Counted from the stretch's first letter, positions 611-28,691 are shown. The stretch: DNA of 32,000 nucleotides from Microcystis aeruginosa NIES-843 (GCF_000010625.1 NC_010296.1:4350001-4382000), one strand, 5' to 3'. Program-made: numbers and translations. Notes: a model not told the origin generated them from the letters alone.

Positions 611-1510
611 TTAGGGAAATACAGTTAAAGGAATCCATTCGTAGGTGTTGACAATGCCTTGAAAATAATCATTAATAGTTTCTCTGGAATAGGGAACAAC
701 ACCCTCTTCACCAAACCAACGTTCATAAATTGTCACCGCTTGTTGTTGGTCACTAACGATCCCTTCCATGAATTTTAATAGGGTATAATTCACTGTATCG
801 CGCCATTTAGAATCATTTTCGGGTAAAGTACAGGCATAGGATTCGTAGGCGTAGGGATAGGAGGGAACTATGGCTAAATTATTGGGATTTTTAGCGCTTT
901 TCCTTAAACCTTCCAGGGTAATGCCATCACTGGCAAAACCATCAATTTCTCCCGCTTCTAGTTTTTGTAAACCCTCGCCACGATTTTTAACTTTGACCAA
1001 AATAGCGGCGGGTTGTTGAGTTTTAATTACTGCTTCATTAGTAGTATTGGCAATTACTCCAATGCGTCTGCCTGCCAGGCTACCGATGTCATCGAGATTA
1101 CTACCTTTGCGGGTGAGCAATTGAGTACCACCGGCAAAGTAACTAACAGAAAAATCCACTTCATTTTCTCTTTTCCAAGTAAAAGTAGTGGAGCCACATT
1201 CTATATCTATAACCCCTGTTTTCAACTTTTCAAAGCGATTTTGGGGAGTAATCTCAACAATTTTTAACTTAATTGGTTTTCCTAACTTCCGTTCGGTTTC
1301 CTTGCGAATTAACTCTAACATATCAAGGCTGTAACCCACCCACTTGCCCTGGGAGTTGACAAAACCAAAGGGAATAGCATCTTTACGAGCGCCCGCAGTA
1401 ATTACCCCAGTTTTTTGAATGCGATCGAAGATTGCTCCCGCAAGGCTAGAATGGTTACTGGTGAGGGTTAAAGCTACTGTCATCGTCATGACGGCAAGTG
1501 TACGCTTCAT
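611..1510 (-). CDS. polar amino-acid ABC transporter substrate-binding protein (family 3)
   Basis: 299-aa ORF with an N-terminal signal peptide (MKRTLAVMTMTVALTL). The body is typical of type 3 periplasmic binding proteins (VITAGARKDAIPFGF, GYSLDM, IDIECGSTT, IDGFASDG). Confidence 0.85.
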   Translation of the reverse strand: MKRTLAVMTMTVALTLTSNHSSLAGAIFDRIQKTGVITAGARKDAIPFGFVNSQGKWVGYSLDMLELIRKETERKLGKPIKLKIVEITPQNRFEKLKTGVIDIECGSTTFTWKRENEVDFSVSYFAGGTQLLTRKGSNLDDIGSLAGRRIGVIANTTNEAVIKTQQPAAILVKVKNRGEGLQKLEAGEIDGFASDGITLEGLRKSAKNPNNLAIVPSYPYAYESYACTLPENDSKWRDTVNYTLLKFMEGIVSDQQQAVTIYERWFGEEGVVPYSRETINDYFQGIVNTYEWIPLTVFP

Positions 1511-1836: not shown

Positions 1837-1858
1837 GGGGTGTAGGGTGTGGGGTGTG
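1837..1858 (+). repeat. GGGGTGT heptamer array, 5' part (split by the intron)
   Basis: GGGGTGT AGGGTGT GGGGTGT G, directly abutting GTGCG at 1859. Confidence 0.8.
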
Positions 1859-2643
1859 GTGCGATTCGTTGGCTAGAAACTAGACAGTAAGACGTTTAGA
1901 GGATTAGCCGCTTGGTAAATGTAGTACCTTGATAACTTTATAACCCTACAGGTGCGGGTTAGTAATAACCTTAGTCCTGTCCTCTAGATGCCTAGAGTGA
2001 CGGCATTTCCTGCTGCTTTAGACTTGGTACATCTGAGGTAGTGAGCGAGGAAAAAAAAGCGGTATCTGATAGCCTAAATCAGAAACCCGTTGAGCCAGAA
2101 CCTATGGATAGCCCTGGGGCGAAGATACGAATTAACCATCGTCAACACCCACGAGCCAAAAGGCTGACAGGCTCGAAACAAAAGTTAACAGAGTTGGGGC
2201 TGATAGCTCATACCACTATCAGTAAGGCATTCCCGTTACTCTGTTGTGGACAGTATCATCCTAAGGGTTCAACCAATGGTTATAGGGAACGAAGTAACCC
2301 TGATTGACTCTGCCCGTTCGGGGCAGTAGGAAACCATCCGCAAGTCAATAGAGGGAGAGGATGTCCTTAAAAGCCAAGGCTTTGAGTAATATCAAAGATA
2401 TGCTGACAAAGGACGGGTAACTAGGAAGTCTAAGCAACAATCAACGGTCATATACGCCCTAAAACCAACAATCTTGTCTGGTGGGGATACAGCCAAGAGG
2501 GTTGAATAGACAAGGAAATAATAATTCCCATTATTATTCTACTAATGACAGTAGCCTAGTTACTCAGGAGCCGGATACGGCGAAAGTCGTAAGTCCGGTT
2601 TTGAAGCAGGGGGTGGGAAGGCGACTTCCTGCTCTACTGTAAC
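1859..2643 (+). mobile_element. ORF-less group II intron (about 785 nt)
   Basis: The 5' end is GTGCG at 1859. A canonical 34-nt domain V lies at 2568-2601. A domain VI hairpin spans 2605-2633, with an unpaired A (2636) 7 nt before a terminal AC. The domain IV position holds only a short hairpin (cttgtct...agacaag) and no reverse-transcriptase ORF. Excising 1859-2643 restores the heptamer phase of the flanking array. Confidence 0.75.
2568..2601 (+). ncRNA. group II intron domain V (catalytic hairpin)
   Basis: GAGCCGGAU-ACGGC-GAAA-GUCGU-AA-GUCCGGUUU. This gives a 9-bp lower stem starting with the AGC triad, a 2-nt bulge on the 3' strand, a 5-bp upper stem and a GAAA tetraloop. Confidence 0.85.
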
Positions 2644-2669
2644 GGGTGTGGGGTTTTACCCATTTTCAG
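2644..2669 (+). repeat. GGGGTGT heptamer array, 3' part, plus conserved GGTTTTACCNATTTT module
   Basis: The sequence is gggtgtggggttttacccattttcag. The reverse complement of 5672-5697 reads tgtagggttttaccgattttgag, so the same array-plus-flank module occurs twice. Confidence 0.7.
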
Positions 2670-3950
<1,281 letters not shown>

Positions 3951-4081
3951 TGTCTTGCCTATTTGGGGTACAAAAGATTTTCTTTATTCCCCTTGACTTT
4001 TAAGACAATCGCTACATTCATCTTATATTTAATTCCACCCACCCACTTAACCAACCTTGTCCACCTAATTAGTATTTTCCT

Positions 4082-5230: not shown

Positions 5231-5536
5231 ATGTTACATCTGCTCTATATCCTCGCCTTCACAGTTATCGCTTTTTTGACCATTAATAATTTAATTCGGA
5301 GTCTGATTACTGTCAGCATGGATTCCCAGAAACGTCCTGCTAAATCGGCTAATTCCTATAATCCCTACGGTTATCCCATGACTTCCCATCCCGAACTTTT
5401 GGACGAGGCCGGACAACCGATTAATGAACCTCTGTTAGTGATTCGTTCTCTCACTGTCGAAGATGCTCGTCAACAGTTAGATGCCATTTATAATTCTTCT
5501 CCCAGTGCTACCAAAGAGCAAGATGAAGAAATCTAA
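5231..5536 (+). CDS. small membrane-anchored hypothetical protein
   Basis: 101 aa with an N-terminal hydrophobic helix (MLHLLYILAFTVIAFLTINNLI) and an acidic tail. Product unknown. Confidence 0.55.
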   Translation: MLHLLYILAFTVIAFLTINNLIRSLITVSMDSQKRPAKSANSYNPYGYPMTSHPELLDEAGQPINEPLLVIRSLTVEDARQQLDAIYNSSPSATKEQDEEI

Positions 5537-5539
5537 TTG

Positions 5540-5753
5540 GGGTTGGCTGAATAAATCTAAAAATCTTGTTGGGTAAGACTTTGAGACCTTTTTGAAATCC
5601 AAAAGTGCTAGGCAAGAGGGTGATCAGGGGGAAAATTCAGGTGCTTTTTCCCCGAAAATTAGGTAATTGACCTCCTCAAAATCGGTAAAACCCTACACCC
5701 CACACCCCACACCCCACACCCTGCCCCCACCAGCAAACTTTTTCAGCAGACCC
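5540..5753. mobile_element. MITE-like element with IS5-type termini, carrying a heptamer array
   Basis: The left end GGGTTGGCTGAATAAA and right end ACTTTTTCAGCAGACCC resemble the IR of the IS at 28692-30374 (GGGCTTGCTGAAAAAG). It is flanked by a direct TAATTG at 5534-5539 and 5754-5759. Confidence 0.4.
5691..5725. repeat. CCCCACA heptamer array (reverse complement of the GGGGTGT type)
   Basis: ccctaca ccccaca ccccaca ccccaca ccctgcc. Confidence 0.85.
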
Positions 5754-7227: not shown

Positions 7228-7260
7228 TCAGTTATCAGTTATCAGTTATCAGTTATCAGA
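7228..7260. repeat. TCAGTTA heptamer tandem repeat (4.7 copies)
   Basis: tcagtta x4 followed by tcaga. Confidence 0.9.
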
Positions 7261-7341
7261 TTGCAGTGTTGAGTAGACAGTGTTAGGGGAAAACTTCGGT
7301 GTCTTCTGGACATCAGGTGAAAAATGTTCACTGTGTTACAT

Positions 7342-9506: not shown

Positions 9507-9613
9507 TTACATAATGGTTATTAATGCTAGGGACATAAGGCTTATGCCCTTTTTTCGATAAGATAAGCTGATCACCTTAACTCCAATAGAACCAAACTTG
9601 GGAACTTTCTTTT

Positions 9614-9648
9614 CACTGATTACTGTTTACTGTTCACTGCTCACTGAA
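9614..9648. repeat. YACTGNT heptamer tandem repeat (5 copies)
   Basis: cactgat tactgtt tactgtt cactgct cactgaa. Confidence 0.85.
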
Positions 9649-9695: not shown

Positions 9696-11300
9696 TTAAG
9701 ATCGATCGATATTGGTGAATAATTGAGGATCGAGGGTGGGTAGTTCGATATCTTTTTCTGCTGGGGGAGAGGCTAACTGGAAGCGATTGAAGGTTTGTTG
9801 AATGCGATCAAAAATGGTGATTTTTTGCTCGCTATTGTTTTGGGGTTCGGGAATAGGTTCCACTTCTAGCGGAGGCTGAACCCCAGGGGCCGGTTCGTTA
9901 ATCTCTTTTGTCTCCGGTATGGTGGTTAGGGGAGATTCGATCGCTTCGGGGGTTTCCTCGACCTTTTCGATTGTTTCTGTCTCTACTGGTTTTTCTTCCA
10001 CTATTGGGCTTTCTGGCTCAATAACAGGGTTTTCCTCAACTATTGGGCTTTCTGGCTCAATAACAGGGCTTTCTGGCTCAATAACAGGGCTTTCTGGCTC
10101 AATAACAGGGGTTTCCTCAACTATTGGGGTTTCTGGCTCAATAACAGGAGTTTCCTCCTCAATAACGGGGGTTTCCTCAACTATAGGGGTTTCCTCAACT
10201 ATAGGGGTTTCTGGCTCAATAACGGGGGTTTCTTCCTCAACTATGGGAGTTTTTTCCTCCTCAATAACAGGGGTTTCTGGCTCAATAACGGGGGTTTCTT
10301 CCTCTAGACTGGGAATGGTTTTATAGTTGGGATCAACAATGCTACGGGCAATTGTAGGGGATAAATCGCCGCGGACTAATTGACTGAGGCCGTCTTGGTA
10401 AGAGGGATCAAAACTAATCACGCGCACGCTGGTATTAAACTCGTTTTCGATTTTATTTCCCTTACCATCGATGAATTCTAGTTGTACCCAGTTATTGCCC
10501 TTGGCAAAACCCTTGAGATAGATCGGTTCCCAAGTATCAAGCAGAAAACTTTCACCGTTGACAGTGACACGAATGCGCCAATTTTGAAGACTATTATCCC
10601 CGTTGGCAGTATTGGGCAGACGTAGAGAAGCATTACTCAGATAAAAATCGAGCAGGAGCGGTTCTGCACCGTAGATTCCTTGCGGACTACTGTAGGTTAA
10701 TAGGGGTAAGTTATGATCAGGGGCATTTTTGCCTGTTTTTGTCAGAATATGAAAGGTTGTTTCAGCGAAGGCCCCATCATTTTTAAAACTTTCCTGCCAA
10801 GGCCGCAGGGCCAAGACGCGGAGGGTGTGAGTACCGGGGGCAAGATTTTCTAGGATAATCGGTTGCTTGAGGTCGTAGATAGCCGCTGCTGGTTCATTAT
10901 CGACAATTAGGCTCAAGTGGGGTCCTAATTTCAGGGTATCGTCTTGGAAAATTGGCAGCCCCGACACTTGTAGTTTAACTGTCACCTGAGGGTCATCGAA
11001 AACTTGTTCGGCCAGAGGACTGAGAATCGTTACTTGGGGAGCGTAACGATCTAAACTGGCGCGCAGTTCCTGAATTAGGGCCGGGGGGGCAACCTCAGAA
11101 ATGCGGCCCTGGACGACGGGAAGATGAAGGGTTTCGGAAGTGGGGAGATTGGTAGCCGTCAGGCGATCGCCACAGGCGGTTAACAGGGTGGTCAGTAAAC
11201 CGATCACAAGACATATATGAAGGGTTTTGACTGGGATTAATTTATGTAGTAGGGATAGCACGTTCCTCCTAGAGCCAAGGCCAAAATCTATAGAAACCAT
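9696..11300 (-). CDS. putative lipoprotein with an acidic Pro-rich tandem-repeat region
   Basis: 534 aa. It has a lipobox-like LLTAC after a hydrophobic N-terminus, about 330 aa of non-repetitive sequence, and then about 110 aa of E(T/S)P(V/I)(I/V)E(P/E) units. Confidence 0.7.
   Translation of the reverse strand: MVSIDFGLGSRRNVLSLLHKLIPVKTLHICLVIGLLTTLLTACGDRLTATNLPTSETLHLPVVQGRISEVAPPALIQELRASLDRYAPQVTILSPLAEQVFDDPQVTVKLQVSGLPIFQDDTLKLGPHLSLIVDNEPAAAIYDLKQPIILENLAPGTHTLRVLALRPWQESFKNDGAFAETTFHILTKTGKNAPDHNLPLLTYSSPQGIYGAEPLLLDFYLSNASLRLPNTANGDNSLQNWRIRVTVNGESFLLDTWEPIYLKGFAKGNNWVQLEFIDGKGNKIENEFNTSVRVISFDPSYQDGLSQLVRGDLSPTIARSIVDPNYKTIPSLEEETPVIEPETPVIEEEKTPIVEEETPVIEPETPIVEETPIVEETPVIEEETPVIEPETPIVEETPVIEPESPVIEPESPVIEPESPIVEENPVIEPESPIVEEKPVETETIEKVEETPEAIESPLTTIPETKEINEPAPGVQPPLEVEPIPEPQNNSEQKITIFDRIQQTFNRFQLASPPAEKDIELPTLDPQLFTNIDRS
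9965..10305 (-). repeat. in-frame 21/24-nt tandem repeats encoding ETPVIEP units (bounds approximate)
   Basis: Near-identical units such as gggctttctggctcaataaca recur back to back on the plus strand. Confidence 0.8.
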
Positions 11301-17306: not shown

Positions 17307-17334
17307 AATAGCCAAGTTGTGAGTTGTGGCTTAT

Positions 17335-17520
17335 GGTTCTTCGGTTTGTGCTATGCAATGTCTTTCTCTATAAGGGATGAAACCCTTATAGAGAAAGACA
17401 TTGATGCGATTTTTGTCAATTGTTTTCGATCTAGAACGAACTAATCAATAGAACTCTTGCCAGATAAGGATTTAGTCGATTTATGCCACCCTATTGAACC
17501 ATACCAAGTAACGAAGAACC
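17335..17520 (+). mobile_element. ISL3-derived MITE, copy 1
   Basis: Termini GGTTCTTCGG...ACGAAGAACC, with the 8-bp TSD TGGCTTAT at 17327-17334 and 17521-17528. It is homologous along its length to 25633-25819 and 28189-28375. Confidence 0.85.
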
Positions 17521-25390: not shown

Positions 25391-25632
25391 TGAAGTATTA
25401 ACTCAGATTGACTCGCCTTTTGGGGGACATTAAGTATCTCTAAAAAGATCGAGTATCGATTAGACAAATAGCTCCCATCAGGCTACTTCTCCCTGTTTTA
25501 ATTGCTCTAACCAACTTAGCGCGTTTTGTTGACGTTGTTCTGCTGTGGACTTATCCTTTAAGAACTTATCTAATACTTGTTTAGTCATCAACTGACCAAG
25601 AGTTCCCTGCACAATTAATTCGGGGAAACGCT

Positions 25633-25819
25633 GGCTCTTCGGTAATTGTTATGCAATGGACGGGGGTTATAAGGGATGGAACCCTTATATAGAAAGGCGT
25701 TTAGCGATTTTTGTCAATTGTTTTTGATCTAAAGCGAACTCATCAATTAAGTCTTTTGCCAGATAAGGATTTAGTCAATTTATGCCCCCCTATCGAACCA
25801 TACCAAGTAACGAAGAGCC
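25633..25819 (+). mobile_element. ISL3-derived MITE, copy 2
   Basis: Termini GGCTCTTCGGTAATTGTTATGCAA...GTAACGAAGAGCC, with the 8-bp TSD GAAACGCT at 25625-25632 and 25820-25827. Confidence 0.85.
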
Positions 25820-28188: not shown

Positions 28189-28375
28189 GGTTCTTCGTTA
28201 CTTGGTATGGTTCGATAGGGGGTCATAAATCGACTAAATCCTTATCTGGTAAGAGACTTAATTGATTAGTTCGCTCTAGATCAAAAATAATTGACAAAAA
28301 TCGCTAAATGCCTTTCTATATAAGGGTTCCATCCCTTATAACCCCCGTCCATTGCATAACAATTACCGAAGAGCC
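28189..28375 (-). mobile_element. ISL3-derived MITE, copy 3 (inverted)
   Basis: The reverse complement is nearly identical to copy 2. It is flanked by ACATTTC(G) at 28182-28189 and 28376-28383. Confidence 0.85.
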
Positions 28376-28691
28376 ACATTTCGCTCGCTCTCTTACTTGA
28401 TGATGTTTACTAGCTCGATAAATTCTCTCTAGCATTTTCTGGCTCTCGGGGTTTAGGTCTCTAATCAATCTCATTGTATTTTCCTGCTGCTTCGTTTTTT
28501 TATGTATTATACTTCTTAATTTTTTATTTGGGTAATTAATTTTGCATGACTACTTACTGCATCTAGTAACGCTGGGTTATGGGAGGTGATCAGTACCCTC
28601 AGTTTTCTTTCTAAGGCGATCTCCCGAATTTGCTTAACTAAATTATCTGCACGACTGGGATGAACACCATTATCGATCTCTTCAATAATTA

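Follow-up and report, generated by a model that had tools for sequence, protein, structure and literature searches.

A 32,000-nt stretch of Microcystis aeruginosa NIES-843 DNA (NC_010296.1:4350001-4382000), hereafter the window, carries at 1859-2643 on the plus strand a 785-nt insertion that we analysed as a group II intron without an open reading frame (ORF). The insertion runs from GUGCG to AC and lies inside an array of GGGGTGT heptamers. Its ends coincide with those defined by naturally empty alleles, its domains V and VI are recognised by Rfam, it encodes no reverse transcriptase (RT) domain, and near-identical copies of it occupy the same phase of similar arrays at many other sites. Taken together, the sequence comparisons make it very probable that this is a real and recently mobile, non-autonomous group II intron of subgroup IIB whose guide sequences fit the GGGGTGT repeat.

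Boundaries and ribozyme structure

On the plus strand, the locus reads GGGGTGT AGGGTGT GGGGTGT G (1837-1858), then the intron from GTGCG (1859) to ...CTACTGTAAC (2643), and then GGGTGT GGGGTTT (2644-2656). The first segment is the 5′ exon and the upstream part of the heptamer array, and the last is the 3′ exon and the downstream part of the array. The ends of the intron, GTGCG at 1859 and AC at 2642-2643, fit the group II rule of GUGYG and AY, and the GUGCG start is the one that had been recognised in an earlier sequence-only reading of this locus.

Alleles of the locus were retrieved with the exact sequence of the neighbouring substrate-binding protein (611-1510, minus strand), which gave ten contigs from other assemblies and metagenomes. 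Seven of the ten (L121-L127, all from other Microcystis) join 1858 directly to 2644 and are 99.4-100% identical to the window in the flanks, and the exact intron boundaries of 1859-2643 follow from this junction; owing to a single shared G, 1860-2644 is equivalent as the inserted segment. The empty allele is exactly the sequence predicted for the ligated exons, GGGGTGTG|GGGTGT. With the flanks joined as GGGGTGT AGGGTGT GGGGTGT G|GGGTGT GGGGTTT, the heptamer phase is unbroken, and the in-phase boundaries that the sequence-only reading had deduced from this periodicity thus recur as a junction in natural intron-less alleles. At the window locus the empty allele is the majority state, with 7 contigs vs 2 for the occupied one. 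The left intron junction of the window is also present, at 3231-3376, in a short contig from another sample (L134, ERZ9422254). The right flank of this contig comes from another intron-bearing locus (L144/L150 type), and it is probably a chimeric assembly across the 785-nt repeat. It serves as a warning for metagenome bins of Microcystis, in which intron insertions break short-read assemblies.

The catalytic core was identified by covariance models. Rfam model RF00029 (Intron_gpII, covering domains V and VI) matched 2566-2643 over the full length of the model, with a score of 55.0 bits (E 2e-8) against a cut-off of 40 bits. Domain V lies at 2568-2601 on the plus strand, the 34 nt already proposed for it, with an AGC triad, an AA bulge and a GAAA tetraloop, and the model of the plastid ndhA/ndhB domain V (RF04356) scores 41.7 bits on the same segment. 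According to both Rfam and the predicted fold, domain VI (2606-2640, plus strand) is a hairpin of 15 bp capped by a GCGA loop; its only bulged A, the branch-point A2636, stands 7 nt ahead of the 3′ end of the intron. This branch point and its distance from the terminal AC had been placed correctly in the sequence-only reading, whereas the stem proposed there (2605-2614 with 2624-2633) was slightly displaced and too short.

For domains I-III, we turned to comparative folding. The first ~90 nt of the intron are similar to introns on Nostocales plasmids. One of these, on a plasmid of Tolypothrix PCC 7601 (L140, 2426 nt), carries an RT gene, and homologues of its protein yielded four further full-length introns (L155, L157, L159, and L161). 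Window positions 1859-2460 were aligned with the regions upstream of the ORFs in these five introns and folded with RNAalifold. The consensus fold of domains I-III in the six introns contained 129 pairs, 62 of which had compensatory changes, compared with 23 such pairs in shuffled alignments and 8-18 when the pairing partners were slid. Paired cells amounted to 92.7%, vs 81% in the shuffles and 31-43% with slid partners, and none of 500 shuffles was as high on any measure. Domain I (1865-2293) is closed by UUCGUU (1865-1870) with AACGAA (2288-2293), domain II (2298-2356) comprises helices 21-23 with 7 pairs showing compensatory changes, and domain III (2363-2414) comprises helices 24-26 with 9 such pairs, all on the plus strand. 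The assignment to the group II introns is thus borne out at both ends of the molecule, with domains V and VI passing Rfam and domains I-III sharing a covariation-supported fold with five ORF-containing relatives.

In agreement with the sequence-only reading, no RT is encoded by the intron. The intron ORFs at 2041-2307 and 2481-2642 contained no Pfam domain, and a Pfam search of the window ORFs detected no reverse transcriptase anywhere in the 32,000 nt. Remnants of a former ORF could be aligned in the domain IV stub, which occupies approximately 2415-2563 on the plus strand. The N-terminal remnant (~2454-2493) corresponds to about the first 14 codons of the intron-encoded protein (IEP); its ATG has become ACG, a TAA occurs in frame, and it aligns to MSKTLSNQMVEWNS of the Tolypothrix intron. 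The C-terminal remnant extends from ~2535 into domain V and was aligned with the sequence that precedes domain V in L155 and L159; in relatives of this type the ORF continues through domain V, and its last codons match the domain IV stub. When the C-terminus of protein P0069 (...SLITEEPDEVKVSRPVLK) is compared with the window (...SSLVTQEPDTAKVVSPVLK), the remnant aligns to ...SLITEEPDEVKV, with moderate similarity. Since remnants of both ORF ends survive in domain IV, the intron appears to have arisen from an RT-encoding intron by internal deletion of nearly the whole domain IV ORF.

Insertion sites and target recognition

Further copies were searched for in three ways: the 88-aa mini-ORF of the intron was looked up by exact match, metagenomes were scanned with the 36 nt that begin the intron, and variants of the mini-ORF were looked up as well. 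As judged from unique flanks, there are at least 12 other insertion sites and, with the window, at least 13 independent sites in several Microcystis genomes. Copies are present in M. viridis NIES-102, whose genome is complete, and in M. aeruginosa PCC 9443, and the database proteins that are identical or nearly identical to the intron mini-ORFs belong to M. aeruginosa (a metagenome-assembled genome and PCC 9443) and to M. viridis NIES-102. Intact copies are 784-785 nt in length and 98.6-100% identical to the window intron.

All sites lie in GGGGTGT-type arrays and share one phase. The junctions all conform to ...GGGTGT-R-GGGTGT-(G/A)|intron|GGG(T/A)G... with the intron invariably on the G-rich strand, and the inserted segment is always exactly GUGCG...AC with nothing extra. 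Between 2 and 11 array units (never fewer than 2) lie upstream of the intron and 0-7 downstream; at one locus the upstream array alone ranges from 2 to 11 units among strains. The base at +1 is G at all sites, and position -8 can be A or G, in keeping with its being unpaired. Outside the array, the flanks are unrelated at many sites, e.g., those of the window, L131, L133, and L147. One 11-unit array had hinted at a preference for the 3′ end of the array; this was ruled out by the unit counts at all sites.

Some arrays contain more than one copy. On the NIES-102 chromosome (AP019314.1; L149, 3730-6838), two introns lie in one array exactly 21 nt, or three units, apart, and L153 has the same arrangement. 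The upstream copy of L149 (copy A) has at intron nt 171 an insert of 87 bp whose ends are perfect 12-bp inverted repeats (AGCTTAGACGCA) and is also broken near nt 246-262 by an IS4-like insertion sequence (IS). In a short-read metagenome contig (L150, 106-1673), two copies stand head to tail with no spacer (...GTAAC|GTGCG...). This tandem may represent a true second homing event at the 5′ junction, with G1 of the first intron serving as the +1 base, or it may be an effect of assembly. Other damaged copies include that of L142, disrupted by an ISL3 element, those of L143 and L146, disrupted by a transposase-bearing insert, and that of L148, which has internal deletions and is 94-96% identical.

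The guide sequences of the intron, i.e., its exon-binding sites (EBS), and the matching intron-binding sites (IBS) of the exons were located by covariation with the exons across the window intron and its five ORF-containing relatives. EBS2 (ACACCC, 2145-2150) pairs at 6/6 positions with IBS2 (GGGTGT, 1845-1850; exon -14 to -9), a segment conserved at every insertion site, and the homologous loop covaries with exon -14 to -9 in the six introns. EBS1 (CAUACC, 2209-2214) occupies the terminal loop of a hairpin at 2199-2223, whose helix 20 shows compensatory changes, and pairs at 6/6 positions with IBS1 (GGTGTG, 1853-1858; exon -6 to -1). EBS3 is C2251, in a 3-nt internal loop of domain I, and its partner is G2644 (IBS3), at which the 3′ exon begins. 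All of these elements are on the plus strand. Over the six introns, the mean pairing of EBS1 was 5.5/6 with cognate and 2.3/6 with non-cognate exons, and that of EBS2 was 5.3/6 and 2.6/6, respectively. The EBS3 pairs were C-G, C-G, U-A, U-A, U-A, and G-C, i.e., Watson-Crick in 6/6 introns and of three types. The EBS1 loop columns of the five relatives are complementary to their own, quite different exons. Because a separate EBS3 is present, the intron can be assigned to subgroup IIB. An alternative EBS2 register, in which CCCAC pairs with -10 to -6, arises because the target is periodic; ACACCC, pairing with -14 to -9, was preferred because it fits the column and exon positions of L161 and L155.

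The recognised target, GGGUGU-NN-GGUGUG|G, consists of two heptamer units plus one base, which explains the fixed phase of the insertions, the need for two upstream units, and the tolerance of A or G at -8. Any array with at least two upstream units would therefore offer one or several in-phase and harmless homing sites. The suggestion of the sequence-only reading that the heptamer array is the homing site accordingly gains support from two sides, the common phase of at least 13 sites and the complementarity of EBS1, EBS2, and EBS3 to the repeat.

Heptamer arrays and the proposed mobility

Arrays of this type are a known peculiarity of Microcystis, and NIES-843 is an outlier in predicted G-quadruplex sequences and carries a (GGGGTGT)58 tract (PMC6539912). 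Within the window, two-unit heptamer matches occurred 7 times vs 0.12 expected from shuffles. Tandem Repeats Finder reported the array upstream of the intron and, at 5690-5721 on the opposite strand, another one built from the same unit. The latter, delimited by us as 5688-5722 (minus strand), is the intron-free array to which the sequence-only reading had drawn attention; it offers three in-phase target positions. It lies near one end of a dispersed repeat of ~216 bp (5536-5751, minus strand) resembling a miniature inverted-repeat transposable element (MITE), with imperfect terminal inverted repeats GGTCTGCTGAA and GGTTGGCTGAA and with CCAATTAG flanking both sides. The locus of this repeat is polymorphic, the repeat being absent in L121, which has a single CCAATCAG, and present in L122-L124. 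Paralogues with 82-86% identity were found in L141, L142, L125, L145, and L144. The intron occupies the array of one of these paralogues (L144, L150, and L152) and a related context in PCC 9443. Another mobile element thus spreads part of the supply of homing sites.

From these data we propose the following route. The excised intron RNA, bound by an RT/maturase supplied in trans by another intron, would reverse-splice into DNA (retrohoming). The RNA would pick sites at which EBS2 (ACACCC), EBS1 (CAUACC), and EBS3 (C) can pair with 5′-GGGUGU-NN-GGUGUG|G-3′. Two consecutive units of (GGGGTGT)n would thus suffice as a target, and such units, being abundant and intergenic in Microcystis, would provide many harmless sites. 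What the sequences show directly is the anatomy of the ribozyme, its exact boundaries, the insertion polymorphism, the many near-identical copies in one phase, and the EBS/IBS assignment from covariation; splicing activity, this mechanism of retrohoming, and both the existence of a helper protein and its identity are what we infer from the comparisons. M. aeruginosa NIES-843 encodes seven group II RTs, six of which are 97-99% identical, with an endonuclease domain (PMC8934634). These RTs are possible candidates for the helper, none of them linked to this intron.

Several results weigh against the view of a recently mobile intron. The Rfam models for domains I-IV remained below their cut-offs, and the best of them (D1D4-2) reached 26.7 bits vs 36 and covered 2005-2072 only. 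This miss carries less weight than the comparative fold because the seven D1-D4 models cover particular subclasses only, and the fold makes up for it. Neither the window nor ~258 kb of Microcystis DNA searched by tblastn contained a helper RT. No RT sharing the frame of the intron's domains IV-VI was found, and a peptide search of the databases matched only intron-internal mini-ORFs. The exact 36-nt 5′ end was present in seven contigs of the metagenome collection, all of them ORF-less or IS-disrupted, and no RT-encoding copy with this end was among them. At three insertion sites, position -1 is A and forms a C-A mismatch with EBS1. The tandem-repeat flanks could give rise to the empty allele by slippage deletion, in which case it would not be the pre-insertion state; the direction of the polymorphism rests on the majority empty state and the near-identity of the copies. 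Finally, a promoter and terminator scan around the intron was at chance level and uninformative.

Other searches for a parent or close relatives gave similar outcomes. Filamentous cyanobacteria accounted for all of the top 120 homologues of the Tolypothrix IEP. A scan of the genome collection with a degenerate domain V pattern, which was too broad, showed no close relative among the at least 120 matches listed. Viral contigs contained nothing with the exact domain V or the 5′ end of the intron family. The plasmid collection returned distant Nostocales relatives only, with no Microcystis RT among the best 40 matches listed.

Considering that neither parent nor helper was detected, the intron might have been active recently and now be stranded, its cognate RT having been lost from Microcystis. 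The copies would then be splicing-competent or inert passengers, and the empty alleles would partly be products of slippage, for which the flanking direct repeats, permitting in-phase deletion, provide a route. Some copies are indeed being destroyed by IS or MITE insertions or by internal deletions (L142, L143, L148, and copy A of L149). Most, however, are intact and keep their identity of 98.6-100% across strains, the empty allele is exactly the spliced-exon sequence and the majority state, and Microcystis genomes reportedly harbour several group II RTs of almost the same sequence, endonuclease domain included (PMC8934634), so that we regard a stranded intron as improbable. About equally improbable is the view that the intron is a dead relic whose copies spread as DNA, by recombination or gene conversion between arrays or by hitch-hiking in the MITE-like repeat. 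In its favour, the arrays are recombination-prone (2 to 11 upstream units at one locus), several occupied arrays lie inside the ~216-bp repeat, and the helper RT was not found in the DNA searched. Against it, the inserted unit is always the RNA-defined GUGCG...AC, many sites have unrelated flanks past the array, RNA-guided insertion would produce just the EBS/IBS match seen here, a pair of copies spaced by 21 nt in one array is consistent with repeated homing, and the introns (98.6-100% identical) must be younger than their MITE-like carriers (82-86%).

Beyond recent mobility as such, a layered system can be envisaged, in which the MITE-like repeat seeds arrays, the intron colonises them repeatedly in phase, and the quadruplex-prone G-rich strand is favoured. 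We consider this extension doubtful, yet worth stating. At times the G-rich arrays may be structured or single-stranded, so that reverse splicing would be easier and a cognate, endonuclease-bearing helper could be needed less. If this extension were true, the intron would parallel, in a prokaryote, the telomere-repeat-specific retrotransposons and would be the first retroelement of bacteria to have specialised on a microsatellite.

Other repeats and mobile elements were recorded in the window, which has a G+C content of ~42% and whose only near plasmid matches are Microcystis repeats. Two further heptamer arrays consist of TCAGTTA (x4.6, 7228-7267) and TTCACTG (x5, 9612-9646). TAACTGA, the complement of TCAGTTA, is known as a repeat from Beggiatoaceae and from a small number of cyanobacteria, Microcystis among them (PMC4679880). 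In L135 and L151, intron sites are adjoined by similar arrays of CTGATCA and CTGATAA. Within a 534-aa ORF (9696-11300, minus strand) that has no Pfam match lies a long, imperfect tandem repeat (9991-10304; periods 21, 39, and 60). Three copies of a dispersed repeat (17334-17520, 25632-25819, and 28189-28376), in direct and inverted orientation near ISL3 and other transposase genes, are 91-95% identical to each other and 85-88% identical to Microcystis plasmid sequences.

Downstream of the intron, at a distance of 67 nt, the window contains a 1303-bp IS110-family element (2711-4013) with CT on each side (2709-2710 and 4012-4013), which is likewise missing from L121-L127. Its transposase is split by a frameshift into a DEDD domain (2958-3659) and a Transposase_20 domain (3439-3894), and its left end comprises 247 nt of non-coding sequence, where IS110 elements encode their guide (bridge) RNA. 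The 42 nt directly upstream of the insertion point (2669-2710) share 97.6% identity with part of a plasmid from another cyanobacterium, Kovacikia minuta, and may be a conserved small repeat that serves as an IS110 target.

Significance and relation to known systems

Group II introns are thought to persist in bacteria by means of harmless insertion sites. With guides tuned to a 7-nt tandem repeat, a single specificity would give access to hundreds of intergenic targets, several of them per array. ORF-less mobile group II introns are already known from cyanobacteria, and the mechanism proposed here is a standard one. The new element is a short tandem repeat as the homing site of a group II intron, which we could not find described; our literature search returned no such report, most subscription journals lying beyond its reach. 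The intron could provide a natural test system for how retrohoming depends on the copy number of the target, the phase of the repeat, and DNA structure (predicted G-quadruplexes), and for how an ORF-less intron finds its helper. Its insertions are polymorphic markers among Microcystis bloom strains. Being compact (785 nt) and having a known target code, this IIB ribozyme might also be developed for gene targeting in an organism in which genetic manipulation is difficult.

As regards lineage, the ORF-containing relatives encode proteins with RT, maturase, and HNH domains (RT-X-HNH), whose best match of solved structure is TeI4h of Thermosynechococcus (PDB 6ME0, E 5e-110), a member of the chloroplast-like (CL)/IIB1 lineage (PMC2882425). 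The CL lineage is defined by IEP phylogeny and the Microcystis intron has no protein of its own, so that its placement in this lineage is a putative one made through the proteins of its relatives.

The closest analogue is TeI3 (CL/IIB1; Mohr, Ghanem and Lambowitz 2010), of which Thermosynechococcus elongatus has 17 ORF-less copies that derive from one ORF deletion, proliferated, and are mobilised by the RTs of sister introns (PMC2882425). Both are cyanobacterial IIB introns with a domain IV deletion that left N- and C-terminal ORF remnants, and the Microcystis intron, the RTs of whose relatives are closest to TeI4h, is presumably also mobilised by the RT of another intron. They differ in that TeI3 and TeI4 have unique sequences or other introns as targets, whereas the Microcystis intron uses a short tandem repeat that recurs many times in each genome, with several positions per array. 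Moreover, the helper of TeI3 is known and its mobility has been demonstrated experimentally, while the present intron is known here from its sequence.

The introns of filamentous cyanobacteria (L140 of the Tolypothrix PCC 7601 plasmid, L155 of Nostoc KVJ20, L157, L159, and L161) share with it the 5′ end (GTGCGATTCGTTRGCTAGAAAC), the fold of domains I-III, and the positions of EBS1, EBS2, and EBS3. They are, however, 2.4-2.5 kb long, encode an RT-X-HNH protein, and have unrelated and non-repetitive exons, and their nucleotide identity to the window intron is only ~72-80%, in patches.

Group IIC introns, which insert at terminator or attC stem-loops, and RmInt1, which inserts into ISRm2011-2, likewise home to a repeated harmless motif and multiply without gene damage. 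However, group IIC introns recognise a DNA structure, have a short EBS1, and are smaller and different ribozymes, and the target of RmInt1 is an insertion sequence. The Microcystis intron, in contrast, shows full-length EBS2/EBS1/EBS3 pairing with a 7-nt tandem repeat. In eukaryotes, the non-long-terminal-repeat retrotransposons TRAS and SART insert in a fixed phase into the telomeric TTAGG arrays of insects, the site being picked by a protein endonuclease. These elements and the Microcystis intron have in common a short G-rich tandem repeat as the target; their mechanisms are unrelated, and the likeness is one of analogy only.

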